This document shows, piece after piece, positions 7,446 to 28,222 of a DNA stretch of 37,865 nucleotides. Made by a program: the position numbers and the translations under genes. The stretch lies in contig CAYSRF010000002.1 in the NCBI GenBank assembly GCA_964433595.1, positions 1 through 37,865 of the forward strand, in the 5' to 3' direction. A model generated the notes under the pieces. The model did no database searches. It saw only the letters and a program-made list of their open reading frames with translations, and was not told the origin of the DNA. Origin of the DNA: Candidatus Hadarchaeota archaeon. Lineage in GTDB: Archaea > Hadarchaeota > Hadarchaeia > Hadarchaeales > Hadarchaeaceae. Within the stretch, counting starts at the first letter, position 1, and every line of letters starts with the position of its first letter.

Positions 7446-7489
7446 TGAACTACCCCGCTAGATCTTGTTTACAAATAGATTTTCGTTGT

Positions 7490-7639: not shown

Positions 7640-7704
7640 ACATCATTCTCCTTCTTTGGAATTCTTTGGAAACCAAAAGATATATAAATATACCATTCTA
7701 TAGA

Positions 7705-7726: not shown

Positions 7727-7741
7727 CAAAAGTGAGTAAAT

Positions 7742-8806: not shown

Positions 8807-8886
8807 AAAAATATAATGTCATTGGATTTACTAAGAAAAATTTTAGAAAATTTGTACGTGACTAAATCATGTCGTCGAAAACCAGA

Positions 8887-10791
8887 CTAACCCGGCGCAC
8901 CCGTTGATTCGATCTTCCTAATGAAATCGTCTAAATCGCTTAGATTCAGAAAAACGTATATTCCAGTTTTAGCAAGGTGGAAAAGGTCTTCCTCGCGCCA
9001 ATGTCCATCTGGCACGAAAAGAATCATGTAATCATCTTTATATTTGGTTTGGATACGTCCATTACTAGAATACACATCAAAAAGGGTTCCAAACGCCCTT
9101 CCAGACTCCTCAGGGCTTCGATGTTGGACTGTGCTACCCAGTGCGAATCTGGACTTTAGTAAGATCGTCATTTGATTACCCTTGATGCACCAGGGGTAGT
9201 TAACAGTACCTTGGTTATGGAGCAGACGTTCACCATGGTTAGGGTAAGTTTGTAGTTGATCTCTCCGAAGTTTAATCAATTGCTCGAATAGTGTCTTAAT
9301 CACATAATTCCTTTCATGTCTATATCTAGATACTATAGAGTTAATAACGTAGTCAATTGGGCTAACTTTTGGATTATTCAACTCTTGCCAAACTCGTTCC
9401 CCAACACTTCTTTTTGACGTAACCAAGCGGGAGTAGATTGTACCGTTACGAACCAACCGATCCCTCTCTTTCAACAATAAATTAGTCAATCTTGTCATTT
9501 CTTGTCTCGAGAAATCTCGAACATAGAAGTTGACTTCCATCCGGTTGGTTCGGATCACGGAACGGATACTGCTTTCCTTCAACCCGAAAACGTCAAGAAC
9601 GATTTTCCGCCAAATTCGCCTCTTCTCGATATCGGGAGTATTCCAAAATCGTTGAAGAGTATCGTTAAAATTTTTTGAAAATAAATCTTTGAGGTGGGCA
9701 CTATACTTCTCCCATTGCCGGAGGACATTGAAGTTATCCAGCAATTCTCCTCTCCTTTCACTTAATATTGTCGCTGCTGAAGTCTCTATCTGCTCTTCCG
9801 AAACCCCTAATTTGGAGAAATCGATAAACAAAGAAGAAACAATCATTTTTCTCCCTATCCGAAATTTCGCGTCACGGCTTCTCTTGATGAGATTCAAAGA
9901 GGTGATAAAATCAACTGCGTTCTTCACTTCCTCAACAGGTAAAGAAAGCGCATTCACGATCTCATCTAATTTACGGGTTCCATGAGAAATTAGGTACTTC
10001 AAAACCTTCTTTTCAGTATTTTCCAGTATAGCATTAAGGATAATGGCATATCTGAGTGAGGGTCGCGAACTTGGAACACCATATGTTTTGATCTGTTTTT
10101 CTAACAACTTCTGAGGAGAGATCCATCTAGGTCGTCTCGTTTTGAGATAGGAGTCTCGGCAAGAAGACCAAAAATACTCCAGCTCTGATCTTTTGAGTCT
10201 TGTGAGATTTTTGAAGTACACAATCAAATTGTTATAAGCCCACCTAACATTCTTCAAATCAGGCCCTGGTCTTTCGAACCTGCTCTGAATATACTTGTAA
10301 AATGGCCCCTCAGGTCTTTCCTCTTTCCATTTATTATGAAGATATTTCAAATCTTCCTCTAAAATGAAAAAGTCATCTTTTTTTTGGTATTGTGGGTAAA
10401 AAACTGAATCAAAAAGAACCTCCTTTCCGGAAAGTAACCATTTTGCCCAGTATTTCTTATTCCCGAAAACAATGTTCACTGCGATGCATTTTGGTCCCAA
10501 GATGCGGGAGAGTTTGATTTCTTTAAGTTCATCAAAAGTCTCCCATGCGGGATACTGTGAATTACGAGTTGGCGAATCTATCTCCTCCCCTGTTGTGCAG
10601 AAAATCGCATAACGTACATTTTTGTGTGAAAGTAAGATATCAACATGACATCTCAGAGAGGAGGAACTGAACTGGCGAGCGATGAACTTCGGATCATAGA
10701 TACTACTCAAAGCAGCATAGGTTAGTTGCTCTAATCGCCAACCATGATCGGCTGCAAGACCACGTCCTGGATGCCAAGTTTCTGCCGACAT
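8887..10791 (-). CDS. Hypothetical 634-aa protein with a central winged-helix-like segment; no recognisable family
   Basis: Long ORF in the AT-rich block. GGGAG precedes the ATG and TTTAAATA lies about 40 nt upstream. LKYLISHGTRKLDEIVNALSLPVEEVKNAVDFITSLNLIKR looks like a wHTH. The terminal regions have possible nuclease-like acidic motifs (HVDILLS..., ...DYMILFVPDGHWREED), which are unproven. Confidence 0.55.
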   Translation of the reverse strand: MSAETWHPGRGLAADHGWRLEQLTYAALSSIYDPKFIARQFSSSSLRCHVDILLSHKNVRYAIFCTTGEEIDSPTRNSQYPAWETFDELKEIKLSRILGPKCIAVNIVFGNKKYWAKWLLSGKEVLFDSVFYPQYQKKDDFFILEEDLKYLHNKWKEERPEGPFYKYIQSRFERPGPDLKNVRWAYNNLIVYFKNLTRLKRSELEYFWSSCRDSYLKTRRPRWISPQKLLEKQIKTYGVPSSRPSLRYAIILNAILENTEKKVLKYLISHGTRKLDEIVNALSLPVEEVKNAVDFITSLNLIKRSRDAKFRIGRKMIVSSLFIDFSKLGVSEEQIETSAATILSERRGELLDNFNVLRQWEKYSAHLKDLFSKNFNDTLQRFWNTPDIEKRRIWRKIVLDVFGLKESSIRSVIRTNRMEVNFYVRDFSRQEMTRLTNLLLKERDRLVRNGTIYSRLVTSKRSVGERVWQELNNPKVSPIDYVINSIVSRYRHERNYVIKTLFEQLIKLRRDQLQTYPNHGERLLHNQGTVNYPWCIKGNQMTILLKSRFALGSTVQHRSPEESGRAFGTLFDVYSSNGRIQTKYKDDYMILFVPDGHWREEDLFHLAKTGIYVFLNLSDLDDFIRKIESTGAPG

Positions 10792-10980
10792 TTTTCTCCC
10801 TATTGAATTTGTTTACATTTTTGGATTAAAAACTATTTAAATCATTTTACGTTAATTTTGCCGCGAAAATAAGCTGACCCATGGAGAATGGTGCTATAGG
10901 TCCCCGAAGGGCCTAAGAAAGCTGTTAGAGAAACACCCAAAGTTACTAACACGAAAAATTTAGGGGACATGACTTTAGAT

Positions 10981-11775
10981 TTAGAATTTAAGATTCCGTT
11001 GAATAAACGACTCAACTTGACGGTTCTTGGTTTGAAAATTTTTCTTTTCTGTATCAAAATCATCTATTATGCACACCTTTTCCCTCGCAAACTCCGATTC
11101 TATTACATGGGCAAAAGGCAAATTCAAATTAGATAGAATTAATATCGCGGTTGGTCTAAAAATTTTGAGATAATTTTTTATTTGCTCTTTTAACCTCCTT
11201 TCAGGCTTCCCAAGTGTTGGGTCAACGATCATTCTTGGGTTGATCACCTTTCCCTTGCCTAGCGGTTCTGGGCCGAAATCATTCACTATTGGGATATATG
11301 CTTGGATTTTTTCGAAGTCATCTACAAGTTCAAGTCTCCAATACATATTCACTGTTTCTCTAAAGGGCGAAAGACGTTTAATCTTCACATAGATTTGTCC
11401 TAAAACAATAGAGATGTCTGGCCTAAGACGGCTTCGCAGAGGTGGATAACCATCGTAGTAAATAGATAAGGTCAGATCTGTTCTATGTCTTAGAACTATT
11501 GATGGGGACAACCAATTTGCTAACTGAAGGATCGGGATTCTCGATATGCGGATGCCACGCGTCATTGAGAATTTTGGGGCGATGACGTGATTTGAGTCAA
11601 TGTATTTTGGTAGTGGTTTGAAATCAAGTTTTGTTAGATCTTGGAAGATACAATTAAAGACAAACTCTTCATATTTTCTAAACTTAGATCTTCTTTCTCT
11701 TGAGCTAAATGAAATCCCATAACTCGACAGAGGATAACCGTTCGAAGAACCACCATCTTTCATTGATTGATACAT
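10981..11775 (-). CDS. Hypothetical protein of about 264 aa, no recognisable family
   Basis: I prefer ATG 11775, which is 1 nt after the stop of the RHH gene, over the track GTG at 11835, which lies inside the RHH gene. RPDISIV and MIVDPTLGKPERRLKEQIK are weak PD-(D/E)xK-like hints only. Confidence 0.5.
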   Translation of the reverse strand: MYQSMKDGGSSNGYPLSSYGISFSSRERRSKFRKYEEFVFNCIFQDLTKLDFKPLPKYIDSNHVIAPKFSMTRGIRISRIPILQLANWLSPSIVLRHRTDLTLSIYYDGYPPLRSRLRPDISIVLGQIYVKIKRLSPFRETVNMYWRLELVDDFEKIQAYIPIVNDFGPEPLGKGKVINPRMIVDPTLGKPERRLKEQIKNYLKIFRPTAILILSNLNLPFAHVIESEFAREKVCIIDDFDTEKKNFQTKNRQVESFIQRNLKF

Positions 11776-11776
11776 T

Positions 11777-11917
11777 CTACCCCATTTTTTCTCTGAAATA
11801 TTCAGCAAGAAGTGATCGAATGGTCTGTTGGACACTATCGAGTCGTCTTCTCTTTTTTTCTTCTTCTAAAGCCCTAAGCATAGATTCTGGAAGGGACATA
11901 GTGAATTTTCTTGCCAT
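11777..11917 (-). CDS. Ribbon-helix-helix small DNA-binding protein, 46 aa, paralog of 7490..7639 (not in the ORF track)
   Basis: My own translation gives MARKFTMSLPESMLRALEEEKKRRRLDSVQQTIRSLLAEYFREKMG. Its stop TAG (11779-11777) is followed after 1 nt by the ATG of the next gene. Confidence 0.65.
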   Translation of the reverse strand: MARKFTMSLPESMLRALEEEKKRRRLDSVQQTIRSLLAEYFREKMG

Positions 11918-11922
11918 AGCTA

Positions 11923-11982
11923 TCTAAAGAAATCTAAAGAGGGGAGAACTTAAAGAAGGGTTGTTCTTTAGAATGCTAAAGA
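11923..11982. promoter_or_regulatory. Cluster of TCTAAAGA/TCTTTAGA sites upstream of the second RHH gene; candidate operator array
   Basis: Tandem tctaaaga at 11923-11930 and 11933-11940. Inverted repeat TCTTTAG-aatg-CTAAAGA at 11965-11982. A related cttaaagaag at 11949-11958. Confidence 0.5.
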
Positions 11983-11997
11983 CTTAATTTGACGTCC

Positions 11998-12008
11998 AAA
12001 AAAAAAAA
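11998..12008 (-). terminator. T11 tract (minus strand) just downstream of queD; archaeal oligo-T terminator candidate
   Basis: An A11 run on the plus strand sits 46 nt past the queD stop and separates the que operon from the next promoter region. Confidence 0.45.
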
Positions 12009-12053
12009 CGTCTTTAAGGATAAAAAATAATAACTAGCTTACTATTTTTTTGA

Positions 12054-12524
12054 TTACCTTATCTTTTTCTCAAAACATGCAAACTGACCGGGAGACTCTT
12101 CAACCTTGACAATTATCTTTTTAATATTTTTATGTTCACTCAAACTTTCGGCGAGTTCGTTCGCGATTAGCCTAGCAATCTCCTCAACTGTAGTGTTAAC
12201 GATAGGCAACCAAACAACATCTTCGGACGGAAATCCAAACTCCTTACCATGAAAATTTATGAGAGTTTTGCCCTCGATAGATCCCTCTCTTCTTAACTCG
12301 TTTTTCTCTGGCAACAATAGCCTGTGATCATATCGATCGCAGATCTCATCAACTTTTTTCTTCAACTTGATGAAATCAACAACAAGTCCTCTTTCATCAG
12401 GCTCACCCTCAATGCTGACCCCAACTTTCCAGTTATGGCCATGCAAATGCTCACATTTCTCATGCCCGATAATTAAATGTGTGGCCGAAAAACCGATGTT
12501 TTCCTTTTCTAGCCCGATCCTCAA
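12054..12524 (-). CDS. queD: 6-carboxy-5,6,7,8-tetrahydropterin synthase
   Basis: PTPS-family motifs SATHLIIGHEKCEHLHGHNWKV. TTG start overlaps the upstream stop (TTGA). Confidence 0.8.
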   Translation of the reverse strand: MRIGLEKENIGFSATHLIIGHEKCEHLHGHNWKVGVSIEGEPDERGLVVDFIKLKKKVDEICDRYDHRLLLPEKNELRREGSIEGKTLINFHGKEFGFPSEDVVWLPIVNTTVEEIARLIANELAESLSEHKNIKKIIVKVEESPGQFACFEKKIR

Positions 12525-13450
12525 CTGTTCACCTCCAGTTCCACCTTTAAATCAGAGACAAACCCTTCCCTTTCCGCAAAAGCATCATGTTGATGTATGC
12601 TTTCAAGGTTGAGCTGTTTTGCGGTCACATAGGCATCGCCAGGGAGATCCGGATACCTGTTCAGTAACCCTCTGATCATCTCCCTCACGGTTTCCTCAAC
12701 GAATTTTGGCTTAAGATAAGCCCTAGTTATGACCTCAACTTCATCCTCACGTTTCAGGATCTCGTAAAGTTGTTCGCTCATGGAACCCTCAACAATTTTG
12801 ATCAAGTCTTCGGCCTCAACTCGATAACCAAGCGAGAGTTCGACCATTAAAGTGCCCGTACCTCGCTGACTATGTGAAGCAATCGGTATTCTTTGTAGGA
12901 TTTCGTCGATTTTCGCCTTATCTATCCCAGATTTCTCTAATTCCTCCCTAACCCTTGATTCCATAACTTCTTGAGCACAAGGGCAGGTTGTCATCCCCTG
13001 TACTTCGACCCCGATCGTCCTCTTCATTTTCGTTTTTCCATCAATTTTCTCAGCTTTTGCCCCGGCCAAAAGTTTGTATAAAGTCTGGGTTTTTGTCTTG
13101 AGTTTCGGGGTTTCCCTAATTACCGGATAGTCAGCCCTAACCCTGACCTCGGCTTTTTTTGCATTTGGATGAACTCTAAGTAATTTTAATGCAATCTCCG
13201 AGCACATGTCTTCAGTATCCGAAATCTGACCTGTTGCGACTTCTTCGATTGCCTCGTTTATTACTTGAGTGCTTCTCGACATGTGAATTCCAGTCTGTCT
13301 AGGGTCAAGATCAACATAGGCCTCGATTTCGGTATTAAGGAAGTTCTCTTGTTCGCCCCTCTTTCTATAAATCTGCTTTCTGACGTTTGTAACTCCCACC
13401 CTGCTAAGCCTTATTGGAAATGTTGATTTTTTGTCCTGAAACTCCATCAT
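12521..13450 (-). CDS. folE2: GTP cyclohydrolase IB family (FolE2/MptA type)
   Basis: Motifs MTTCPCAQE and [10 protein letters not shown], with a length typical of COG1469 enzymes. ATGA overlap with queE. Confidence 0.75.
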
Positions 13451-14217
13451 AACACATCCATCAACTTATGAACTTGGGGAATCACCATGACGTTTTCAGG
13501 TTCGAAGACCTTTCCAGCTATTTCGGCAAGTCTGAAAAGCTCCTCTGTTGATGGCCGTTCCTTCACGGTTCCTGTGGGGGTAACGGGTTGGATCACGAAT
13601 CTGATTTTCAGGTCCGACAAGTCATTACATACTTTTCTGAACTCGTCGGGGTTGGTATTGGGGAGGATTATCGTCTTTACTATTGTATCAAGTCCGTGTT
13701 TAACTGAAGTTTTGATGCATCCTATCTCATTCTCATAGAGTTTTTCCCAACCGTTTTCTGAGGTGGCGTTATGATTTTTTGGAAGCTTCACATCGATTGC
13801 AGCGTAATCAAAATGATCGACGACTTTTTCAAATGTGGATTTTAATGCCCCATTTGTCTCAAGGTAATTTCTCCAACCTTGCACGCGACACCCTTTGGCA
13901 AGCGATCCAAGGAAATCCCCCGAAAGAAGAGGTTCGCCACCTGTGAATGATATGCTATGAAGATCAGGAGTAAAAAGCAATTTAACTGATTTTATAATGT
14001 CATTTACATCTATCGGATTTTTCACTGTCTTGAAGTTTTTTGATCCAGCTTTGGTTTCTATCCTACAAACATCGGGCCTCATTTCCTTAAACTGGAGAGT
14101 GTCACAATAATTGCAATTTAAGTTGCAACCAGCGATCCTCACAAATATCTGCCTTCGGCCGACATAGGGTCCTTCGCCTTGAAACGAACTGAAGATCTCG
14201 CCTACATAACCTTTCAT
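13447..14217 (-). CDS. queE: 7-carboxy-7-deazaguanine synthase (radical SAM)
   Basis: N-terminus [34 protein letters not shown] is the QueE signature with the radical-SAM cysteine cluster. Confidence 0.85.
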
Positions 14218-14219
14218 GG

Positions 14220-14900
14220 TTAGACCTCGTACTTGATTGGATCCTTAACCCCAACTTCCCTGAATCCCCTTTTCCTATGCTGACAACTTTCACAGACTCC
14301 GCAATGTTTTTCTTTACCAAAATAGCAACTCCAGGTCAATTCAAATGGAGCATTGACTTCTATTCCCTTCTTAATGATGCCCACTTTGTTCAAGTTAATT
14401 AAAGGGGCCTCGATCTTTGGTTTAGGTTCTGTGAAGGAAGCTGTTCCCCGCTCTAAAATAAGGTTAAATGCTTCCACGAAGGGAGGTCTATTATCCGGAT
14501 ACCCCAATCCCTCCTCTGCGTTAAATCCAACGAATATTTTTTCAGCTCTCAGACTTTCAGCATAAGCTCCCGCTAAAGACAACAAGACGGTGTTTCTCAT
14601 AGGAACCCATGTTGGAGGGGTTTCCTTTGCCCTTAACGAAACTTCTTTTTTAACCGGAATCTCTAAGCTTTCATCGGTCAAACTTGAATGCCCCAATTCT
14701 TTCAAAAATGTTAAATCGACGAACTTCCTTTCTTTGGCCCCTAATCTCTCGGCTATTTTCTTAACAGCTTCTATTTCCCTTTTCTCAGCTTTATGTCCAT
14801 AATTAGCGTGAAGAATGTAGATTTCGTATCCCTGCTTTTTCGCGATCGTTGTTGCGACGGTTGAATCAAGTCCTCCTGAAAGAACGCAAACAATTTTCAT
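14220..14900 (-). CDS. queC: 7-cyano-7-deazaguanine (preQ0) synthase
   Basis: PP-loop VLSGGLDST and C-terminal zinc site [14 protein letters not shown]. Confidence 0.85.
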
Positions 14901-15510: not shown

Positions 15511-15608
15511 TTTTGGACACCATTCTAAGACTCTTGTTAACTTTTATTGCCATCTCACCTAAGATCTAAATAAAGATAAAAGAGATTCTCTTGCAAGAGT
15601 TTGGTAAT

Positions 15609-16535
15609 ATGGGATCCGAGGAAGAAGTTCAAACTCGAAAAACGCAAATTGAAACACACAAAGAGAATCTTCGTAGAGCGATCGAAAAAGCAGAGGCAGC
15701 TAAAGAAGCTCTAAGAGAGGGGATAGCTAACAGGAAAAGGGTATGTGGGGATTTAGATGGGATAAAAGAATTGTCCTCTCAAGAACTTTCTGCGTTAGAA
15801 ATCATCGAACCTTTGGTTGCAAAAATTGATGACGATACCTGGCAAAGTTACGAAGGAATAGCATGTAGTGGTGCAGATTTATCTGGAACATTAAGTGCTT
15901 TCCATCGAGATATTCAAACTGAAGAAGCTGAATTCAGTGAAATTGCTACCGTATCTGGAGCTTCCATTACAACCGCTACTACTAGTGCAGTAAGTGTGGT
16001 CGATCTTTTTTCAGATTTCGATCTCCGTGTTAAAGAAATAAAGATACAAGATACTATCGTGAAGAATATAGAATTTATCCAGAACCGATTAAGCGAAATA
16101 GATCCGTCAATTGCTCAAGGAATCAGAATTCTTTTCCAAGATTGGAGTAGTTTGCCAAATTTTGAGAAATCAAAAAGGTTACTTGATTTAAGATCGTTGT
16201 TATTCTATCAATTTTTTGATCGATTTGCTCCAGAACACAGTTATTCAAAATGTCAATGGTACCGAGATGCAAAAGAAGGAACAATCTGTAGAAAAATGCG
16301 TTTTGCCCAGGTTAAGTTCTTTATTCAGGATTGCAGGGACGATTCAGAAATTAAGGAGTCGGTTCTCAAATCAATTGATTCTACGGCTAAGGATATGTCC
16401 CGCAATTTTGATGATATGTCGAATTATGGCAAACATGGAACATCAGGATCTGTGGCGGAGAGCGTATTTAGAGGCACAATCTCTTCTTTTGCAAACGTTC
16501 TGAGATTAAGAGACCAACTACGGGAGGTTTCCTAA
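15609..16535 (+). CDS. Hypothetical protein with an N-terminal coiled-coil-like region
   Basis: I prefer ATG 15609. An A/T-rich box taaataaagataaaag lies 25-40 nt upstream, and the palindrome CTCTTGCAAGAG (15588-15599) lies between them. No family recognised. Confidence 0.45.
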   Translation: MGSEEEVQTRKTQIETHKENLRRAIEKAEAAKEALREGIANRKRVCGDLDGIKELSSQELSALEIIEPLVAKIDDDTWQSYEGIACSGADLSGTLSAFHRDIQTEEAEFSEIATVSGASITTATTSAVSVVDLFSDFDLRVKEIKIQDTIVKNIEFIQNRLSEIDPSIAQGIRILFQDWSSLPNFEKSKRLLDLRSLLFYQFFDRFAPEHSYSKCQWYRDAKEGTICRKMRFAQVKFFIQDCRDDSEIKESVLKSIDSTAKDMSRNFDDMSNYGKHGTSGSVAESVFRGTISSFANVLRLRDQLREVS

Positions 16536-16836: not shown

Positions 16837-17574
16837 TTAAAGATAAGCTGGCTTGGCTGAAAACTCGAACCGAAGTATTCTATTAGCTTCTATTTCATCG
16901 AGTTCTAACTCCACGTATTGCCTGTTCTTTTTCTTCCTATCTCTTTTTACCTCCAACTGTTTTAAAGGAATTTTATCTCCATTTTCAAAGGTGTAACAGT
17001 ACACTGATTTACTGGTTGCAATAGCGTTGGGGGGATAGAGTATTTTAATCTTTAAATCCTTAATTAGGGACTCCTGTTGAAACTCAAACCATTCGCCATG
17101 CTCAAGATCCTTAAACTGTTTATATTCCTGTATCCAAGTATACCCATAAGGTTTCAGTGGCTGGGCAGGTTCTTTAAATTTTACACTGATTCTCATATGT
17201 GTTGGTTCCTTGGTCAAAGGGGTTATCTTCAGCTCGTTATTTTTTTCGTCGTGTGCGTATTGTTTAAGGCTTTTGAAGAAACGTTCATCCCCCCAAATAT
17301 GGTGCCAAGTTTTCTTTACCTCCCTACTTGCGAGGTTAACAAAGGCAACCTCGTTAGTTTCTAGCGTATGTCCTTCAAAATTCTTTATATCCACTTCACA
17401 ATTCCAGTGAAGGTAAAATCTCCCCCTTTCTACGGCCTCTCTTATAGTTTTTATTAGTTCTTCCTTTCTTTTTCTGCTAGTTGCCCACTCATAAATCTTT
17501 ATTGCGGTAAGGCTAATGCCGAGGAGAGAGCCAATAACCCAAATGACGTCTGGCAATAAACCTGCTAGCATCAA
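16837..17574 (-). CDS. Hypothetical protein with a single N-terminal transmembrane helix
   Basis: LLPDVIWVIGSLLGISLTAIKIY is a hydrophobic anchor. The rest is a soluble domain of unknown family. Confidence 0.45.
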   Translation of the reverse strand: MMLAGLLPDVIWVIGSLLGISLTAIKIYEWATSRKRKEELIKTIREAVERGRFYLHWNCEVDIKNFEGHTLETNEVAFVNLASREVKKTWHHIWGDERFFKSLKQYAHDEKNNELKITPLTKEPTHMRISVKFKEPAQPLKPYGYTWIQEYKQFKDLEHGEWFEFQQESLIKDLKIKILYPPNAIATSKSVYCYTFENGDKIPLKQLEVKRDRKKKNRQYVELELDEIEANRILRFEFSAKPAYL

Positions 17575-17679
17575 CCTACCTTCTTTTGTAAGTAATAAAT
17601 CAATATCCGTTTCTCAGGCTCTCGAGACCATGTCTTTCCCGCACATTCTTTTATCAAAGTCCACTGGTATTTGCCATCT

Positions 17680-18123
17680 TTAGAATATCCACCCGACCAC
17701 CCACCCGATCGCGAACCAGTAGAGCATATCGAGGTTGAGCAGTAAGGACGCTTTATAACCGACGCCCCGCGCCAGCCGCCCGTAAACTTTCCTCCAAACA
17801 TGCGGATCTCCAAAAGCAATCAGCGGGTAGATGCAGAGCACCAGCGGGATGACGATGACGAAGCCGAAATAACTAGCCGAAGTCCCGACTATGAAAGCAA
17901 GCCCGCACTCGGCACTGGCTAGGAGCGAGTAAAGCGCGAGCCTCCGGTTGCCCTTCCTCATTTCGTGCTTCATTCGGGCCATGAACCTGGCATAGCCCTC
18001 GTCGAACCTTCGGGCCAAGAAGTCGCCGGGGGTGAGGATTAGGCGCTTGACGTTCATCCGATCGTAACAGATTTTATCCCTACGCCCAAAATCACTTTCG
18101 GCGTTCGGCGGGGCGTGAGTCAT
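17680..18123 (-). CDS. Hypothetical membrane protein (GC-rich backbone relic)
   Basis: Two or three hydrophobic segments (LALYSLLASAECGLAFIVG, FGFVIVIPLVLCIYPLIAF, MLYWFAIGWVVGWIF). GAGGT lies upstream of the ATG. Confidence 0.5.
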   Translation of the reverse strand: MTHAPPNAESDFGRRDKICYDRMNVKRLILTPGDFLARRFDEGYARFMARMKHEMRKGNRRLALYSLLASAECGLAFIVGTSASYFGFVIVIPLVLCIYPLIAFGDPHVWRKVYGRLARGVGYKASLLLNLDMLYWFAIGWVVGWIF

Positions 18124-18271
18124 CGGTTTGACCTCAATCTTTCCGGTGGGATCACTTCTCCAACCCCCCGAGCGCCCCGAGCCGAAGCCCTTTTTTACCC
18201 GCTCTCAAACCGTTTATTGGCAATCCGCGGCCTCAAGCTTTCAGCCTCCACAAAACTGGAAGTTAGCGGTT

Positions 18272-18383
18272 GCGGGCCGCGCGTGGCCGGGCCTAAGTGA
18301 AATCCCTTCACTTAATCGACCTCCCGACCACGCGCAGAGGTTTCAAAACCCGAGTTCTGAAACGGGGTTAGACACCCGCCCGC
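18272..18383. other. GC-rich multi-stem inverted-repeat element in a non-coding stretch (possible structured RNA)
   Basis: Outer stem GCGGGC/GCCCGC (18272-77 with 18378-83). A 13-position stem pairs 18279-18291 with 18323-18335, with 12 Watson-Crick pairs. The remaining position is G-U if transcribed from the minus strand. Inner hairpin AAGTGA-aatccct-TCACTT (18295-18313). Confidence 0.25.
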
Positions 18384-18509
18384 AGACGGAGCACCTAGGC
18401 ATATGTTCCTCACCCTTGTCTTTTCCACCCCCAAATCCGATTACTGCAATTTTTATCTTTGGATAATTCTCTAGGAGAGGTTTTTCCTTAGGTCTCAAGT
18501 TCCTATTCG

Positions 18510-18815
18510 TTATATATCCCATTCTGGAAGTTGATCACATATCTTGCATCTTCTAAAATTGGAAATCTCTCGGTTGTGCCATTTTAAAGTCTTTTTTTGA
18601 TTTATGCAATCTTCAGCTTCCTCTCTACTCAAATATATAGGCCCCCCATCCATTGAAATTTTATAGCTTTTTGGGTCATAGTGTTTCAAAATTTGATCTC
18701 GAGAAGAGAAATCCAACCCTTTAAAATAGGGATTTAAATGAACTTTATGACCACCTTCTTCTTTCGCTGTAGGAAAATCTACGTTAACAACATACTCTTT
18801 AGAGGCATCTATCAA
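18510..18815 (-). CDS. Hypothetical protein (101 aa)
   Basis: ORF in the AT-rich block, last gene of a three-gene minus-strand cluster. No family recognised. Confidence 0.4.
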   Translation of the reverse strand: MIDASKEYVVNVDFPTAKEEGGHKVHLNPYFKGLDFSSRDQILKHYDPKSYKISMDGGPIYLSREEAEDCINQKKTLKWHNREISNFRRCKICDQLPEWDI

Positions 18816-18863
18816 TTTAGCCCCATTTGACCATGAACCTTTCAGGGCTATAAACGTAATTTA

Positions 18864-19247
18864 TCAAAATGTCGTTTTGCCTCTTTTCCTGATTCTCCAC
18901 CAAGTACGCCTGATCTCAACTCCATAATCTCTCGCGAATTCTTTAATTGCTGATGGGACTTCGGTATTGCTAGCAATGTAGATTATAGTTCGTTGCGCTT
19001 TGTATTGCCCTTTGTCCTGCAAGATTTTTTCAATGTCATAACGCGTCAATAGGCGTCTACACTTTGCATCGATGACTGCCCTCTCGTGTCCACGATAAGC
19101 TACGTAATCTGGATACCATGTTTCTTTTCTTCTGAAACCTCGAATCGGTTTTGTTTCTATTTTCCACCCGTCCTTTTTTGGGAAATTTTTCCTTACGGTT
19201 TGATAGATATATCTCTCAAAGACCGCAAACTCGGCGGGGCGCCACAT
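18864..19247 (-). CDS. Restriction-endonuclease-like protein (Mrr_cat/PD-(D/E)xK)
   Basis: YPDYVAYRGHERAVIDAKCRR...IIYIASNTEVPSAIKEFARDYGVEI fits the Mrr catalytic-domain pattern (D ... D/E-x-K, followed by the ...A...A......i.l tail). Confidence 0.6.
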   Translation of the reverse strand: MWRPAEFAVFERYIYQTVRKNFPKKDGWKIETKPIRGFRRKETWYPDYVAYRGHERAVIDAKCRRLLTRYDIEKILQDKGQYKAQRTIIYIASNTEVPSAIKEFARDYGVEIRRTWWRIRKRGKTTF

Positions 19248-19265
19248 TTTTAGCCTCTCTATGAT

Positions 19266-19886
19266 TTAGCTTAGAACTTCGCAATGACCTGATTGATCCA
19301 AAATATAACCGTGCCAATAAGTATCCCAATCTATGTCTCCCTCATCGGGCCGTGCATCTCCGATTATCAAAAGAAACTCTCCACTCCACGTCTTCCTTAG
19401 TTCCCTGATCTTGGTAGAGATATTTTCTAGTATCTTGTTTCTAATTTGTTTAATTTCATCAGCGGTAATTTCTTCAACGGATGTCCGTTTCTTGGCCCGT
19501 TTCTTAGGCCAAGTATATGTAATTAAAATTCTGAGTTCACATTTCTTGTGCTTATAAAGATGTAACAATCTCAGGAGCTCACTTTCATTTACTCCTTCAT
19601 AATCGTTTTCATGCTCTATTAGTATGGATGGATTTTTCGAGTCGCCCCTATACCAAACAAAGTCGATTTTCACTTCACTATCTTGGAGATAGCCCATTTT
19701 CTTTGCGAGTTTCGTCAGGAAAACGGCCATGACATGAGTCCACTGAGTATCAGTCCCCCAATTACCTTGTTCATTAAAGAATTCTCTCTGTATTCTAACC
19801 CCGTCATCGTTTGGGAGTTCTTCAACAAATTTTTTGAACCATTCCGCAGCAGAGACCATACAAAGTATATTTTTGAGAAATGACAA
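19266..19886 (-). CDS. Hypothetical protein, possible PD-(D/E)xK-fold nuclease
   Basis: KIDFVWYRGDSKNPSILIEHEND resembles a D...E-x-E nuclease core. It lies 18 nt upstream of the Mrr-like gene. The start could be the internal MVSAAEW. Confidence 0.35.
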   Translation of the reverse strand: MSFLKNILCMVSAAEWFKKFVEELPNDDGVRIQREFFNEQGNWGTDTQWTHVMAVFLTKLAKKMGYLQDSEVKIDFVWYRGDSKNPSILIEHENDYEGVNESELLRLLHLYKHKKCELRILITYTWPKKRAKKRTSVEEITADEIKQIRNKILENISTKIRELRKTWSGEFLLIIGDARPDEGDIDWDTYWHGYILDQSGHCEVLS

Positions 19887-20007
19887 CTTAAATCTTTATT
19901 TCTTAACCTTCCTCGGAGCGCGGCGGTTGCCCCTTTTTACTGATTTAAAGGACAAGGTTGTAAATTACTTTTTCTCTTAGCCTTTCTCTAAACAAGTTGA
20001 CAAATTG

Positions 20008-20086
20008 GCACTCTCTCGAGGAAGAGGTGTCAAAACAGGAGGGTAACACCTCCTATTTCGCAAGTTACTGATTTGCAACTCATGAA
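20008..20086 (+). repeat. Left copy of an approximately 80-nt direct repeat bracketing the HD/nuclease-like gene pair
   Basis: By hand alignment it matches 22007-22086 at about three quarters of positions with one 1-nt indel. It contains the hairpin AGGAGG-gtaaca-CCTCCT (20037-20054). Confidence 0.7.
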
Positions 20087-20167
20087 AGCTCGAGAAATAC
20101 TGAAGCAGTCGGGGCGAACCCCGATAAGTTTGATTTAAAAGCAGCTGGTCAAGTTAAATACGATTAT

Positions 20168-21247
20168 ATGGAACAATCAGAACCCGAGGGAATAAACAAA
20201 GAGATCCTAAAGACCCTCAGAAAAAATAGAAGAGTTCGGCGAAGGTTTGACCTAAGGTCAATTGACCAGCAACTAATAGAGTTCCTTAGTGAGTCAGGTT
20301 TTGACAAGCGAAAAGAACTAGCTATTTCAATGGTAAGGGCTGTGTTGAAGAAACATGGAAAAGAAAATCCCTTAGCTGCCTTTTCGTCGCGTCTATCTCA
20401 GATTGAAATTGGTATTCAACAGTTTAGTCCTTATTTACGAGATCATGTGACTCATTCTACCTACGTATTTCTTCTCGGATTATTTTTTATGAACAAAGTC
20501 AATAAAATTGAAAAGAAAGTTCAAAAACCTCTGAGTTGGAAATTGGCAGCACTCCTTCACGATATTGGTTACCCCGTCGAACTCTTCGCTCGCTCAACTG
20601 ACGATTATCTAAAACGCATTAACGCTTTGAAGACAGAGATCCCACAGAGGAGTGGCTCAAAGCGGTCTCGACTTCATTATGCAGTAAATATTCTGGGTCT
20701 TGAGGAACTAAGTTCAGGACAAAATGCTTTCAAACTAATCGAAAATCGGTTGGGAGAGTGGGGTATTGAGCTTAAACTTAAAAAAATCTTCAATCAAAAA
20801 TTGAAAAGAGGAATTATAGATCATGGGATTTTAAGTGCTCTGGTAGTTTTGAACATCATTGACGCGTTATATACGAGATATAATCCGGAACATCTTGAAG
20901 AATCGGTTGTTGTTGAAGGTATAGACTGGAACATAAAATTTTTCAGAGGTGAAGTGTTGGATGCGGTTACGGCTATCGCGATTCATAATTTGTTGGAAAA
21001 GATAGTTTTTGAAGAGGCCCCTTTGGCTTACCTCCTTGTACTCAGCGATATCCTCCAAGAGTGGGATAGATACTCTGCTGGTCAAAGGGTATATGACCCA
21101 TATTCAGTCAAAATAGAATTTTCGAAAGATAACATCATTTTGTGTAAACTGAACTTGCCAGAGATGAAATATCGAGAAATCAAGAACGTAATTGAGGAAA
21201 AACTTAAAGCGAAGGCGTTTCAAATTAAATGTGAGACGAAGTATTAA
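20168..21247 (+). CDS. HD-domain metal-dependent phosphohydrolase family protein
   Basis: H...HD...D pattern: LRDHVTHSTY, AALLHDIGYPVE, IIDHGILSALV. Confidence 0.6.
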   Translation: MEQSEPEGINKEILKTLRKNRRVRRRFDLRSIDQQLIEFLSESGFDKRKELAISMVRAVLKKHGKENPLAAFSSRLSQIEIGIQQFSPYLRDHVTHSTYVFLLGLFFMNKVNKIEKKVQKPLSWKLAALLHDIGYPVELFARSTDDYLKRINALKTEIPQRSGSKRSRLHYAVNILGLEELSSGQNAFKLIENRLGEWGIELKLKKIFNQKLKRGIIDHGILSALVVLNIIDALYTRYNPEHLEESVVVEGIDWNIKFFRGEVLDAVTAIAIHNLLEKIVFEEAPLAYLLVLSDILQEWDRYSAGQRVYDPYSVKIEFSKDNIILCKLNLPEMKYREIKNVIEEKLKAKAFQIKCETKY

Positions 21248-21282
21248 TCCCTCTTCAAGAGAAACCATAAAGATGAGAACCG

Positions 21283-22038
21283 ATGCACGCAATTCGTCGT
21301 TTTGGTCTCTGGGAAACCAGTGAGAAGACCGTGGAGGTCAACGTGCTCAGTGATATGGCGTGCCTGCTAGAGAGTAGTACGGGGAGAAAGGTCACAATAG
21401 TATCGCCTACACAATCACAAGAGAACACGTTGGGTTTTGATGATATTATTGAGGGTCTTCCCTCTGGACGTGCCGTAGCGCTCCAATTCAAACGTCCATT
21501 TCAGCTAAGACGACCTTCCAACGCCGTTAGATTCATTATAGATACCCAGCAGCTCCAGCGTCTTCTGAATAACTTCATGGCCGGAGAGGCCTTCTATGCG
21601 CTAGTACCATTTCCTTTGACTACAGATCTTCTTAGAAATAGGGCACAACTACTCGAACTTTCATGTGCGTTAGACGTTTTTGATATTCCCAATCCTAGAA
21701 AAATTTCGCAGAATACTAGGACAATCAGGCACTACACCGGAACCACCCTCTCCGGACTCTCCATTATAGGGGTAGAGGTCTCCGATCCTTGGACCTTTGA
21801 GGGGCTAGAACGAATTAGCACTCTTAAATCTTTATGTCACCAGCTAATTGAGAACAGGATTGGTCGCTCAACGAGGGAGCAAAGAGAACGCCCGAGGGAA
21901 AGAAAGAAGTTAGGAGTTAGACGTCTGTATTACTTACATCTAAGCTCGGACCTAATACCGCACCAAAGTGGAACCAATAAAAGAAGCGGGAGTATTGTTA
22001 AGGTTCGCACCCTCTCACGGAGGAAGGTGACAAAATAG
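21283..22038 (+). CDS. Hypothetical protein with a PD-(D/E)xK-like core
   Basis: ETSEKTVEVNVLSD...ENTLGFDDIIEGLPSGRAVALQFKRP fits an E...D...QxK nuclease-like pattern. It is visibly GC-richer than the adjacent HD gene. Confidence 0.4.
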   Translation: MHAIRRFGLWETSEKTVEVNVLSDMACLLESSTGRKVTIVSPTQSQENTLGFDDIIEGLPSGRAVALQFKRPFQLRRPSNAVRFIIDTQQLQRLLNNFMAGEAFYALVPFPLTTDLLRNRAQLLELSCALDVFDIPNPRKISQNTRTIRHYTGTTLSGLSIIGVEVSDPWTFEGLERISTLKSLCHQLIENRIGRSTREQRERPRERKKLGVRRLYYLHLSSDLIPHQSGTNKRSGSIVKVRTLSRRKVTK

Positions 22039-22086
22039 GAGATTAACATCTCCCATTTCGCAGATTACCCGTTTGCAACCTACGAA
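22007..22086 (+). repeat. Right copy of the approximately 80-nt direct repeat; overlaps the 3-prime end of the 251-aa ORF
   Basis: Hairpin GGAGAT-taac-ATCTCC (22038-22053). TAACATCTCC (22044-22053) is also complementary to GGAGATGTTA at 22090-22099. Confidence 0.7.
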
Positions 22087-22256
22087 TCAGGAGATGTTAC
22101 CCCCGCCCTCCGAGTTCAGCTCCGCCAGGTTGTTCGTAGCGTAATTAATGTCAAATCAACGCCAAAGACTTGAGACAACTTATCGTGTACTTTGGTATGG
22201 GCCGCGTACCAATTTAAATTAAGTTTAGTGTGATTTGTAACATAGAAGGTGTAAGA

Positions 22257-23141
22257 ATGAATCTTCTACAGCGGCAGCAAAGAAAAGAGAGCCAGGAACA
22301 TATCCGTAGAACCTTAGTCGAACTCGGATCGGCCACTTTCACAGAACTATGGAAAAAAACTAAAATTGGATCAAAAACTACCTTCAGTAAAAGGTTACAG
22401 GAACTTGAAGAAAGAGGCGAAGTTGTAAGAAAACACGTACAGCAAAAAGGTAAACGACCTAAATATATAATAAAGCCGTCTTGGAAAGCTCTAGACCCAA
22501 TTAACGGGACACTTACAGAGCTAGAACGTGTGGTGGGCCCTTATGCTAGGCTTGACATAGGATTAGGAAAGAAATTTCTAACAAGAAAAGTGGCACAAAC
22601 TTGTATAGGTATCCTGGAATCACAATACGCTCCACTTGGCATTATTCCAGGCGAAAGTTGGTTCGAGAAACCAGGAGAAGAGCCTAAAGAAGATGGGTCA
22701 TTGTTCAATGAAATCAAGTTCCTTCAAGCGTTGGCTTGTTACGATGCGGAAGAATATGGGATACTGCTAACCGCAAAAGAATATGGAATAAGTCAGGCAG
22801 CTGAAAAGGAGAAAAGGCATTTGAAAGGTGAAAGAGAACACGTTACTCCGGAGCATGGGATATATTGGATCACGAAATTGGACTACGAAAAACCCGTTCT
22901 TGAATTTCTGATAAATAATGTAAAAGATGCAAAACTTTTCCCAGCAAGAGCAATAGTTCGAAAGAGAGGGCTTCAGGCACATTTCGAAGCACTTCTAAAA
23001 TGGGCAGAAGCCATCAGAAAAGGATCAAAGATTTGTGGCGACCTTTATGGACAAGAATATTTTAGCCACAAGCATCGCGTCGTAGAAGGAGCAAAAATAA
23101 AGATGGGAGGCAACAAAAATGAAAATGCAAATTCAGATTAA
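22257..23141 (+). CDS. Winged-helix DNA-binding protein (MarR/ArsR-like N-terminus) with an unknown C-terminal domain
   Basis: IRRTLVELGSATFTELWKKTKIGSKTTFSKRLQELEERGEVVRK is a wHTH. I prefer ATG 22257, with aatttaaatt about 40 nt upstream. Confidence 0.5.
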   Translation: MNLLQRQQRKESQEHIRRTLVELGSATFTELWKKTKIGSKTTFSKRLQELEERGEVVRKHVQQKGKRPKYIIKPSWKALDPINGTLTELERVVGPYARLDIGLGKKFLTRKVAQTCIGILESQYAPLGIIPGESWFEKPGEEPKEDGSLFNEIKFLQALACYDAEEYGILLTAKEYGISQAAEKEKRHLKGEREHVTPEHGIYWITKLDYEKPVLEFLINNVKDAKLFPARAIVRKRGLQAHFEALLKWAEAIRKGSKICGDLYGQEYFSHKHRVVEGAKIKMGGNKNENANSD

Positions 23142-23633: not shown

Positions 23634-26282
23634 TTAGACTTGTCTAGAGTTATTGTATTTTTCTAGAAACGAATTTGCAACTTCTTTCGGGGAAGTTTTC
23701 CTTGCGTCGAGGTAACCAATTGATGACTGCAACCCCGGCACCTCTGAATCATCGAATATGACTGGCAAAATATAGTCGCCAAATTGTTTTATTTGTCTGG
23801 CTATAGCACTTTTCCTCTCATGCGAGGGCCAAGCTTTAGAAACATAATCTTTAGAAATAAACATGATACAGTAATCGGAGTGATCGTAGTAAACTTTTTG
23901 GAGATATTCTGCGAGGTCAGTACCCCATAACTGCGATTGGTAAAATTGATCATACCAGCACTTTATGCCCTTAGTTTGGAGAATATGGGCAACTTCATCA
24001 ACATATTCTCTTTGCTCACTGGCATAAGACAAAGCCACATCGTATTTATTATCTTTCGTCACTTTTTTTTTATTTTGATTTATCGGGATTGCGACGAAGG
24101 GTCCGTAGAATTTGTCAATAATGCTTTCAAATTCATTTTTAAGGCGGTCGCAAATTCTCCTATCCCTGCCTCCAATATAATAGACACATTTAACGTGCAT
24201 TCCTTTAATAGCATCACCAAATATTTGAAAATTGTAGTAGATACAAGCGTTTTCTTCCCAAGAAAAAAGACCGTCTTTCTGTGATAAGTCAATACAACCT
24301 AGATTTAACTCTGAAATAGCCCTTATCAAACGGCCTATTTCTATTTCTTTATAGGGAAAAATCTTTTCCTCAAAATCTTTAAGAAATTTTTTATATTCTT
24401 TTGGAACATCTATTCCTTCTTCGCGAAGTTTTTCAGGAAATATTCTCAAATCACGATTTTTTATGGCAATGTCGTAATTTAGGTAGACTGCATCCAAGAT
24501 TGGAATATAAGGATGACGTTTATATTCTTTCAATAATTCATTGTACGGGACAATACCTTTCTTCCCCCCTACAAAAATTGGGATATTTGTCAACAACCTA
24601 TTGTATTCAACATCGTTTATGATAACTAAATTACTGGCCTCTGGGTAGTACCCAATTATGCCCTGATTACTAAAATCCCGCAACAAGAACTTAAGGTGCT
24701 TAGCTGGCATGTCATACCCTAGGAAACTGTGATGGTATTTTTCAAGTTCTTCAAATTTAATCGCTTTTCGATCTTCTTCTTGAAGTTTGTTTATTAGTTT
24801 AACTAGATTATCAGAAAATGAAGACTTGATCACAATTTTGGTGTTTTCCCAATAAATTTTTTCTAATAATTGATCTTTTAATTCGTCTATTCCAGTTCCA
24901 TCTGAAGGGCAAACTTTTAACCGAATATCAATTTTCCCACTATCAAGAAGGGCTTTTACTGTAGGTTCATCAATTTCATTAATTTCCTGATCTATGTAAG
25001 TTTGAACAAAGAGTATCTTTATTTTTGGATTTAGATTTTTTTCGAGACCTTTCAAGGTTTCTATGGCTTTATCAAAAGAATGTTTATCATTTTGTTGGAA
25101 CAAAATAAGTATAACATCAGAGTCGGCTAAAAATGGTAAGAAGGTGCCTAACACTGTTTCTTGCCCACCATAATCATGGAAGATAATTCGCTTTTGCAAA
25201 GGACCTCCATCGATAATCCAATTCCAAATTCTTTTACCAAATGTTGATTTAACGGCTCCCGCTGACCCTGTTGTGATAAAATTACATAAAGTACTTTTGC
25301 CTACACCTGTATGTCCGATTAAACTGATTTTAGCGTACTTATATTTTATAAGTTTAGGATCGGGTTTAACTTTTTCTCTTTCAAATGATAGTAATCCATC
25401 TTTTTTTAAAACAAGAATTGTATTTTCTTTTGAGAATATTTTTATAATCCCCCCAATCTCATTAGATTCTATTTGTTGAGAATCTACATCAAACTGAATC
25501 AATTCAGTATCTGTGCCGGCAAAAACAGTTTTACCATCATTCGTTATATGTATACAATTTCCCCTGCTCTTAGCATTAGCTATTTCCAACACTGTTTGCC
25601 ATTTCTTAGCACCATTTTCAATTTTCTTTTCGAATAAGTGAATGTGACCAGCCATATCAATTGATGCAAATGAAGCATCTTGAGTCCATGATATATCTTC
25701 TACTGTTTGATTAATGTTTAGCTGTTGTAATTCTTCGTAATGATCTTTTTGATATTCCCAAATAAGAATTTTTCCCGTATAATCTCCTGAAGCCATGAGT
25801 TGCACATTTAGACCTCCCAAAGCGAAAATACTGTTCCGATGTCCCGAAATTGAATATTTTTCCCATTGTCCATGTTCACTTTTACGTATTCCCGTCATGA
25901 CGCCGTATGTTGATGTCGCGACCAAATTTTTTTCCATTGGCCAAACTGTTCTCCAAACACGGGAACTAACGCTATAAGTTGCTTCTTGAAGAAATTCGGG
26001 ATTCTTTGGATTTTCACAATTTAAAATGAAAAGATCACCATTATGGCTACCTACAAGAATTCTTCCATTGCCGCAGGAGGAAATTGTCTCGATTTTTGAT
26101 GAGCATCTGTACAATATTTTTGGTTCGTCATTTTTTGTTTCCCACTTGACAACCAAACCGTTTTCATGTCCAGTAATAAGTAAGTCCATATCAGCTAGAA
26201 AGACACCAGTAGTAGCATTTGGAAAATCTTTTGGGAAAGAAATAATTTGGTTATATTTATTGGGCATTTTTTCTCCATGCAT
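23634..26282 (-). CDS. WD40-like beta-propeller / Roc-type small GTPase / helical (COR-like) region / C-terminal TIR domain protein
   Basis: WD-like repeats (GHENGLVVKW, GSHNGDLFIL, SGDYTGKILIWE). GTPase G1 GHTGVGKST and G3 HDYGGQE. TIR: YDVALSYASEQREYVDEVAHILQTKGIKCWYD...YCIMFISKDYVSKAWPSHERKSA, with a conserved Glu. Confidence 0.65.
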   Translation of the reverse strand: MHGEKMPNKYNQIISFPKDFPNATTGVFLADMDLLITGHENGLVVKWETKNDEPKILYRCSSKIETISSCGNGRILVGSHNGDLFILNCENPKNPEFLQEATYSVSSRVWRTVWPMEKNLVATSTYGVMTGIRKSEHGQWEKYSISGHRNSIFALGGLNVQLMASGDYTGKILIWEYQKDHYEELQQLNINQTVEDISWTQDASFASIDMAGHIHLFEKKIENGAKKWQTVLEIANAKSRGNCIHITNDGKTVFAGTDTELIQFDVDSQQIESNEIGGIIKIFSKENTILVLKKDGLLSFEREKVKPDPKLIKYKYAKISLIGHTGVGKSTLCNFITTGSAGAVKSTFGKRIWNWIIDGGPLQKRIIFHDYGGQETVLGTFLPFLADSDVILILFQQNDKHSFDKAIETLKGLEKNLNPKIKILFVQTYIDQEINEIDEPTVKALLDSGKIDIRLKVCPSDGTGIDELKDQLLEKIYWENTKIVIKSSFSDNLVKLINKLQEEDRKAIKFEELEKYHHSFLGYDMPAKHLKFLLRDFSNQGIIGYYPEASNLVIINDVEYNRLLTNIPIFVGGKKGIVPYNELLKEYKRHPYIPILDAVYLNYDIAIKNRDLRIFPEKLREEGIDVPKEYKKFLKDFEEKIFPYKEIEIGRLIRAISELNLGCIDLSQKDGLFSWEENACIYYNFQIFGDAIKGMHVKCVYYIGGRDRRICDRLKNEFESIIDKFYGPFVAIPINQNKKKVTKDNKYDVALSYASEQREYVDEVAHILQTKGIKCWYDQFYQSQLWGTDLAEYLQKVYYDHSDYCIMFISKDYVSKAWPSHERKSAIARQIKQFGDYILPVIFDDSEVPGLQSSIGYLDARKTSPKEVANSFLEKYNNSRQV

Positions 26283-27820: not shown

Positions 27821-28222
27821 TTTCTCAACTATCATTATTCAGAATTGCAGGCTATAACCATTTTGGGCGATAAAAAATATGCCGGCGAATCGACTGTAAC
27901 TCATCTTCTGTTTTAAGGCAGCATTTAGCTAAGCAGGCTACCACCCGCCTCCAGCAGGCGTTCATAGGCGGCAATTTGCCCTTGCATCTCGCGGAATGGC
28001 CGTTTCATCCTGCTTGACCCGACCTCAGCGTTCCCGCATCATGGCGCGAACCAGCAGGTGTCGTTTCTGTGCCATTGTCTGACTTTACAACCAGGCTCTC
28101 ACGAGCCCGCGAACCTGCTCGATGGATGAAGTTTCCTCAGGCTTTCGCCCGGGAGCTGCCCACCGACTCGCCAGCATTATAATTTTTAGCTCTCTAATCT
28201 TAAGAAGGTAGCTGGTGGGTGG

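Follow-up and report, generated by a model that had tools for sequence, protein, structure and literature searches.

The DNA studied here is a stretch of 37,865 nucleotides (nt) from a Candidatus Hadarchaeota archaeon, which is referred to as the window in the following and represents a piece of an 84-kb metagenome scaffold (ENA ERZ23499174, ZHAO22-1 scaffold_103). It contains two diverged direct repeats, which bracket a plus-strand unit of two genes encoding an HD-like protein and a 251-aa protein of an uncharacterised family (Table 1). The repeats are located in a low-GC island (about 2,000-26,500; GC content 0.33-0.45 vs 0.46-0.57 in the flanks), which is set between the NAD(P)HX dehydratase and PcrB genes and is dense in defence-type genes. 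Both repeats can be folded into a succession of three hairpins, and the differences between the copies preserve this structure on the minus strand. We therefore tentatively propose that the repeated element represents a rare, island-borne structured small RNA (sRNA) on the minus strand. Coordinates refer to window positions unless a locus name (L034, L036 or L041) is given.

Table 1 The repeated element, its parts and the neighbouring features in the window.
Feature	Position	Strand	Basis or remark
Copy 1 of the element	20005-20088	-	alignment, RNA fold, covariance model R1 (98 bits)
Parts of copy 1 (minus-strand order)	hairpin 1 20086-20057; hairpin 2 20056-20035; U-tract 20035-20032; hairpin 3 20029-20009	-	
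Copy 2 of the element	22004-22088	-	alignment, RNA fold, covariance model R1 (105.8 bits)
Parts of copy 2 (minus-strand order)	hairpin 1 22086-22057; hairpin 2 22056-22035; U-tract 22035-22032; hairpin 3 22029-22008	-	
Copy-2-specific long hairpin	22044-22099	-	fold -33.5 kcal/mol
Decayed and incomplete inverted copy of hairpin 2, directly adjoining copy 2	22089-22122	+	local alignment
Putative TATA-like A/T-rich box ATTTAAAA, between copy 1 and HD-like gene	20133-20140		read from sequence
HD-like gene, first of cassette (359 aa)	20168-21247	+	PF01966, E=0.0018, under curated cut-off (weak)
Gene of uncharacterised family, second of cassette (251 aa)	21283-22038	+	24 homologues, AF2 model
Putative TATA-like A/T-rich box AATTTAAATTAA, between copy 2 and winged-helix gene	22211-22222		read from sequence
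Winged-helix (HxlR/Lrs14-like) gene, divergent from copy 2 (294 aa)	22257-23141	+	profile matches
Nearest minus-strand gene downstream of copy 1 (197 aa)	19266-19859	-	homologue comparison
ParB-like gene	879-1733		part of Dpd-like cluster
Nmad2 gene	1985-2494		part of Dpd-like cluster
Two TGT/DpdA-like genes	5739-7445 (-), 7742-8806 (+)		part of Dpd-like cluster
QueD/PTPS, FolE2, radical-SAM QueE-like and QueC genes	12054-14900	-	part of Dpd-like cluster

The original prediction had described two segments of about 80 nt, which align at roughly three quarters identity with one indel and are more similar than expected by chance. Indeed, a blastn comparison against the window aligned the two copies over 76 nt with 77.6% identity and one gap (E=4e-11), and 63 of the 85 columns in the trimmed MAFFT alignment are identical, with one 1-nt indel. 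The core pattern CATTTCGCANNTTACNNNTTTGCAAC occurs twice in the window and was found in none of 100 shuffles, while the longest identical run between the copies amounts to 8 nt. The distance between the copies, which had been given as exactly 2 kb, is 2000 nt at hairpins 1 and 2 and 1999 nt at hairpin 3, and we attach no meaning to the round number. A stretch of 27 nt in the 3′ end of a TIR gene (23656-23682) resembles the ATTTCGCA...TTTGCAAC core with 74% identity; this resemblance was missed by both covariance models described below and is probably due to chance.

What had been described as a single hairpin proved to be part of a larger element with three hairpins, and this element folds much more strongly on the minus strand than on the one originally read. 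The hairpin as such is present at the predicted sites (AGGAGG-GTAACA-CCTCCT at 20037-20054 and GGAGAT-TAAC-ATCTCC at 22038-22053). In minus-strand order, the element starts with hairpin 1, which comprises 12-13 bp in both window copies and has a 7-bp core consisting of GUUGC, a loop containing AAA, and GUAA. It is directly followed by UGCGAAAU and by hairpin 2 (8-11 bp, loop UGUUA), then by the U-tract UUUUG and by hairpin 3 (7-9 bp), which has a pyrimidine-rich 5′ arm. The tract after hairpin 2 reads TTTT in both window copies and T8 in the further copy found in another metagenome (L036, see below). Compared to shuffled sequences, the minus strand folds considerably better (copy 1: -30.7 kcal/mol, z -4.38; copy 2: -38.5 kcal/mol, z -5.13) than the plus strand (z -2.80 and -2.77, respectively). 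If DNA energy parameters are applied, the folds are barely better than those of the shuffles (z -1.6 to -2.8) and the strand asymmetry of copy 1 is gone.

The substitutions between the two copies show the same asymmetry. In the minus-strand alignment 51 of the 53 pair cells (96.2%) are standard pairs, compared to 43-55% in controls with slid partners, and for the same helices 2 of the 53 cells are broken on the minus strand vs 9 on the plus strand. Two changes are double-sided: hairpin 1 has an A-U pair replaced by G-C, and hairpin 2 a G-C pair replaced by A-U, the latter being the compensatory swap that had been noticed originally (alignment pair 40/47), and four further changes in stems are one-sided and compatible with pairing. 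At the DNA level, the mismatches in hairpins 1 and 2 are all transitions, and all but one of them correspond to G.U pairs on the minus strand. Altogether, the copies differ at 10 stem positions, all of these differences being transitions, whereas 4 transitions and 7 transversions are located outside the stems (Fisher p=0.0039), and random substitutions simulated at the overall transition/transversion ratio led to two or fewer broken pairs in only 2.6% of the cases. No conserved open reading frame (ORF) crosses the element, and the six-frame translations share no ORF between the copies. From the minus-strand G.U pairing, the transition-only stems and the difference between RNA and DNA energies we conclude that the constraint is best read as RNA-like pairing on the minus strand. 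Of the three alternatives that had been offered originally without a choice between them, a conserved structured RNA is supported with regard to the structure; the proposed 5′ leader of the HD-like gene or 3′ untranslated region element of the cassette mRNA does not, because the structure is located on the opposite strand.

Copy 2 differs from copy 1 in that its hairpin 1 is extended outward, resulting in a long hairpin of 25 positions, five of which are G.U pairs and one an A.A mismatch. Again, this structure is more stable on the minus strand (-33.5 kcal/mol, z -8.9) than on the plus strand (-17.8 kcal/mol, z -4.8). It includes the alternative pairing of 22044-22053 with 22090-22099, which had been proposed before and which we could validate, and it is mutually exclusive with hairpin 2, since it takes up the 5′ arm of the latter. 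The extension is due to a partial inverted copy of hairpin 2 that abuts copy 2: in a local alignment, AGGAGATGTTACCC (22089-22102) and AGGAGGTGTTACCC of copy 1 agree in 13 of 14 bases (p about 0.002). The inverted copy was also recovered by blastn (22077-22102, inverted) and by the shorter of our covariance models (22055-22122 on the plus strand, 15.1 bits, E about 0.1).

For the HD-like protein encoded between the repeats no match was obtained in PADLOC or NCBIfam and no meaningful one in PHROGs. The 251-aa protein belongs to a family of 24 proteins of about 220 aa, which end at YYLHLS and share the conserved motifs ETSEKT.E.N, GFDD and QFKRP. Its AlphaFold (AF2) model is confident (pLDDT 84.5, pTM 0.83); no fold match was found in the PDB (Foldseek, E<=0.001), and nothing in the model points to a recombinase or an HUH nuclease. 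At seven other loci the relatives are located in restriction-modification or defence islands, where they usually follow a variable partner (another HD protein, an HNH/HNH_2 protein or a 520-aa protein) or else stand alone. The gene for the 251-aa protein together with its nuclease-like partner is a candidate for an uncharacterised two-gene defence module.

The 251-aa protein carries a non-conserved tail of 29 residues, and its last 10 codons and the stop codon are located within the hairpin 3 part of copy 2, which is encoded on the other strand. Because this tail is not conserved in the family, the repeat is not a gene remnant; the ORF reads into foreign sequence. The 3′ end of a duplicated gene, which had been named as the explanation that would overturn the original prediction if no further copies existed, can thus be ruled out: the homologues stop about 29 residues before the repeat, and one further copy does exist. 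None of the seven loci with relatives of the 251-aa protein contains the element or any analogous flanking repeat. Similarly, homologues of the 197-aa gene next to copy 1 (65-70% identical) are encoded at loci without the element, and the covariance models R1 (85 positions) and R2 (65 positions) identified no element at 15 distinct loci with relatives of either protein. The occurrence of the element is independent of both adjoining gene families.

The covariance models, the use of which had been suggested together with a search for further copies, were run with speed filters switched off on positions 21.5-78.2 kb of the contig (about 57 kb), i.e. on the window and the flanking loci L034 and L041. 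R1 recovered both copies with high scores, and neither model detected a third copy in this region. An 18-base core pattern had 22 matches in 185,579 species-representative genomes, all of which are chance matches and none of which has a hairpin 2. Five patterns yielded chance matches only in IMG/VR, blastn yielded nothing in PLSDB and INPHARED, and all open-frame translations of the element, which served as a proxy for a DNA search, matched nothing in a set of 5.8 billion proteins at E up to 10.

A strict 24-base pattern, with which both window copies comply, identified one real contig among 241 million records of JGI metagenomes (L036, JRER01000578.1). Over 36 nt this copy is identical to copy 2 (36/36, window 22045-22080), and the rest of the 6.3-kb contig has no resemblance to the window according to blastn and tblastx. 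It retains the 7-bp core of hairpin 1 and also hairpin 2, the 3′ arm of which has a different sequence and still pairs, and is followed by T8. Read on the corresponding strand, the order in L036 is a Lon-like gene, an intron-containing tRNA-Arg (Rfam, 51.6 bits), a hairpin with T9, the element, a TATA-like box and an operon of ribbon-helix-helix, ParB and PAPS-reductase genes. The distance between the element and the tRNA is about 80 nt, and the element marks the border of a different cluster of accessory genes. Just 3′ of the element, 12 nt (TCCATTCTGGAT) match the D-arm of the tRNA at 11 of 12 positions (L036 4984-4995 and 5139-5226; p about 0.003), which may be the trace of an old tRNA-targeted integration.

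The element matches no known family and is best grouped with the small structured repeats of intergenic regions or with sRNA-like elements, as found in accessory islands. Rfam contains no match for it, neither at the gathering threshold nor with E-values of up to 10, and in L036 only the tRNA was matched. A known ribozyme, riboswitch or sRNA was rejected on these grounds, and so was a tRNA fragment, given that ARAGORN predicted no tRNA in the window, Rfam no tRNA at E up to 10, and that the alignment with the L036 tRNA is not significant. Boxes of H/ACA or C/D box sRNAs were not found by eye. We know of no resemblance to an archaeal origin-recognition box or a dif site. A simple terminator or insulator was set aside by argument, since the three-hairpin unit exceeds what archaeal oligo-T termination needs. 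A small plus-strand ORF or CreT-like mini-ORF was rejected as well, because the ORFs in question (3 codons in copy 2, 14 codons in copy 1) are not conserved, and with regard to a CRISPR repeat-like RNA (CreTA or a solitary repeat) the window contains neither cas genes (Pfam, PADLOC) nor a repeat array.

Antitoxin sRNAs of type I toxin-antitoxin systems often occur as diverged tandem paralogues. The element shares with them its size (about 60-100 nt), stem-loops ending in a U-tract, the presence of diverged paralogues in one island and the divergent or antisense placement relative to neighbouring protein genes. However, there is no small hydrophobic ORF (about 20-60 aa) opposite the element, and no promoter is conserved either.

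Three observations have to be explained jointly: the pairing constraint on the minus strand, the extreme rarity of the element combined with its independence from gene families, and the identical 36-nt core together with the head-to-head partial copy. While the first one favours a structured RNA, the third one favours mobility or recombination at the DNA level. We place the structured sRNA first, since the RNA-specific signals, to which the U-tract after hairpin 2 in all three copies also belongs, are the only quantitative evidence and since every one of the DNA elements considered fails in tests that are specific to it, and regard it as a possible explanation that is to be held with caution. 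The two repeats would then be diverged paralogous copies of an element of about 85-100 nt that acts as a single strand and consists of two hairpins, a U-tract and a third hairpin. Each copy sits between a rightward defence-type operon (HD-251aa or winged-helix-143aa) and whatever is located leftward, and would be transcribed leftward from an A/T-rich box in common with the rightward operon. Judging from its sequence, the box next to copy 1 could serve the HD-like gene rightward and the element leftward, and the box next to copy 2 might act correspondingly. Hairpin 2 and the U-tract would form the 3′ end of the transcript, or transcription would read through across hairpin 3. In the case of copy 2, the RNA would cover the final ~35 nt of the ORF for the 251-aa protein in antisense direction and might switch between hairpin 2 and the 25-bp hairpin. 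The direct repeats, in turn, would have arisen by a rearrangement of the island that placed the HD-251 cassette between two copies, and would not be a property of the cassette.

Several points weigh against a structured RNA. If only transitions are simulated, the low number of broken pairs is not significant (p=0.25), the two-sequence shuffle control was uninformative (125/500), and the covariation statistics have little power because there are only three copies, two of them full. In the L036 copy, hairpin 3 is missing and so is the outer part of hairpin 1, and its fold is no better than that of shuffled sequences (z +0.48). In addition, no promoter-like box is found at a conserved distance from the three copies, and the homology begins abruptly at hairpin 1. 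The identity of 36 out of 36 nt in otherwise unrelated DNA looks more like mobility or recombination at the DNA level than like vertical conservation of an RNA gene, and an inverted partial copy such as the one beside copy 2 is typical of palindromic repeat elements.

The att-like or cassette-boundary site and the mobile element, both of which had been put forward in the original prediction, retain a low probability, and most of the specific membership tests that we ran for them turned out negative. In its arrangement the element works most like attC sites and clusters of attC sites lacking an integrase (CALINs) and also resembles the hairpin repeats known as REPINs and PATEs, but it is a member of neither group.

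It is unlikely that the repeats are what remains of a small palindromic element that was mobile but not autonomous (MITE, REPIN or PATE-like). This explanation assumes an ancestral long palindrome centred on the loop of hairpin 1, of which copy 2 would have kept parts of both arms, and copy 1 and the L036 copy would be half-units; the hairpins would have been kept since a transposase recognises folded single-stranded DNA. REPINs keep their hairpins and are mobilised, like REPs, by RAYTs (PMC3116915), and PATEs of the IS200/IS605 family exist in haloarchaea (PMC3119063). Like these repeats, the element is a short, intergenic, imperfect palindrome with hairpins kept by compensatory changes, which occurs as isolated copies in unrelated contexts; it is also independent of neighbouring gene families, and the L036 copy with its identical 36-nt core in an otherwise unlike contig, beside a tRNA and at the edge of an accessory cluster, fits this picture, and so does the 25-bp hairpin of copy 2, which results from an inverted doublet as in a REPIN. 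However, REPIN and PATE families comprise tens to hundreds of copies per genome along with a Y1 transposase, whereas we found two copies, 2 kb apart, in the 57 kb searched and only one in all the other collections together, namely on one contig among the metagenome records, with none in the species genomes. No Pfam match to Y1_Tnp, RAYT, TnpA, TnpB or another transposase was obtained among the window ORFs, and no matching insertion sequence ends of the IS200/IS605 or PATE type were found in the collections searched; the genes between the copies are the HD-like gene and that for the 251-aa protein, and not tnpA or tnpB. On inspection, the copy ends show neither terminal inverted repeats nor target-site duplications as in a MITE, the only symmetric feature being TTCG...CGAA in copy 2, and the hairpins calculated with DNA parameters are barely better than those of shuffles.

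Lower still in probability, and in our view rather doubtful, is a cassette-junction site of the att or attC type, at which a circular HD-251 cassette carrying one copy would have recombined with a resident copy and thereby become flanked by direct repeats. Archaeal integrons do exist and consist mostly of attC clusters without an integrase (PMC9668308). The likeness comprises direct repeats of the same orientation, with conserved structure and diverged sequence, which flank a compact two-gene unit, the last ORF running into the downstream site, which begins at the 3′ end of this ORF, as is often the case for attC; one strand, namely the bottom strand relative to the genes, folds better, an integrase need not adjoin, and the 12-6-12 geometry of hairpin 1 resembles the core of a tyrosine recombinase site. 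A regular-expression scan, however, revealed no canonical R''/R' pair (RYYYAAC...GTTRRRY) near either copy, and a relaxed scan only GATTAAC...GTTACCC in copy 2 (5/7 complementary) and nothing in copy 1. While attC is a single imperfect hairpin with extrahelical bases on the bottom strand, the element has three separate hairpins, its long hairpin in copy 2 contains one A.A mismatch and not the bulged bases of attC, and its signal is much stronger with RNA than with DNA parameters. The 6-nt spacers of hairpin 1 differ between the copies (TGATTT vs CCGTTT), and there is no shared crossover core because the longest identical run amounts to 8 nt. There are only two sites, 2 kb apart, and no array, and this number would be sufficient for a CALIN only provided that both are attC; the cassette comprises two genes, a putative TATA-like box is located upstream of the first of them, and the seven loci with relatives of the 251-aa protein lack flanking repeats. 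No recombinase, integrase or transposase was found by Pfam in the window ORFs scanned and the precomputed gene tables of the flanks (about 57 kb together), and no recombinase or integrase in the 6.3-kb L036.

Archaeal integrative elements leave duplicated att sites at tRNA genes, and the direct repeats around horizontally acquired genes, as well as the location of the L036 copy at the border between a tRNA and an island, are reminiscent of this. Yet the repeat has no similarity to a tRNA, no identical core and no integrase. Within the window, ARAGORN found no tRNA gene, the Pfam scan of the ORFs found neither an integrase nor a transposase, and no repeats flanking the low-GC island itself were detected.

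We see a slim chance, slimmer than for a true attC-like site, that the repeats belong to an undescribed junction module of archaeal defence islands, i.e. a folded single-strand site or an sRNA-gene landing pad for cassette exchange, which would follow an attC-like logic with unrelated sequence and structure and into which compact cassettes such as HD-251aa would be inserted or exchanged. The least probable of the explanations considered is a duplicated double-stranded regulatory DNA with palindromic operators, e.g. for the adjacent HxlR/Lrs14-like protein, which would in this case be a candidate regulator of the two rightward operons. Both copies are indeed located 80-170 nt upstream of these operons (HD-251 and winged-helix-143aa), the DNA of hairpin 2 is perfectly palindromic in each of them and the winged-helix gene adjoins copy 2. 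However, hairpin 1 is symmetric as DNA at only 8-9 of 12 positions with all asymmetries being of the G.U type on one strand, and transition-only stems (p=0.004) are unexpected if a protein binds them as half-sites. Moreover, the start codon downstream is twice as far from one copy as from the other, and L036 has no gene downstream in that orientation.

The island surrounding the repeats and its flanks contain further features, which we list here in their own right. A Dpd-like 7-deazaguanine DNA-modification cluster extends from 879 to 14900 (Table 1), and the strongest other repeat of the window is located at 7509-7640 and 11787-11918 on the minus strand (132 nt, 73%, E=8e-16). This repeat is coding and corresponds to two paralogous ORFs of about 46-48 aa (MARKFTMS(I/L)P.SM.RALE...RRRLD..Q.TIRS.LAEYFREK), which resemble small ribbon-helix-helix proteins and are located one upstream of a 568-aa TGT-like gene and the other upstream of a 284-aa gene. 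The gene at 15591-16535 encodes a predicted pPIWI-associating nuclease domain (pP_pnuc_1), with no recognisable Argonaute/PIWI gene beside it, and the minus-strand genes at 16837-19859 have no family match in Pfam, PADLOC, PHROGs or NCBIfam. To the right of the winged-helix gene, an 882-aa protein (23634-26282, minus strand) combines a WD40 beta-propeller, a Roc/Ras-like GTPase and a C-terminal TIR domain and matches the PADLOC candidate PDC-S66 and ThsB-like TIR models. The archaeal RNase P RNA is located at 27885-28171 on the minus strand, 1.4 kb past the right edge of the island, and is adjoined by the PcrB/GGGP synthase gene; both identify the host as an archaeon. About 2 kb to the right of the window end on the same scaffold (L041 11969-13264), a TPP-enzyme gene similar to the beta subunit of 2-oxoacid:ferredoxin oxidoreductase has a match to an intein-splicing domain.

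To our knowledge, very few non-coding components of archaeal defence islands have been described. The finding presented here is real and richer than first described, and with three copies it is a lead and not a discovery. If the element is an RNA, it would add an unclassified structured sRNA to the defence islands of archaea and would suggest that an uncharacterised module of two genes is controlled by an antisense RNA. As a site of recombination or mobility, in contrast, it would bear on the question of how defence cassettes are shuffled in archaea without obvious integrases.

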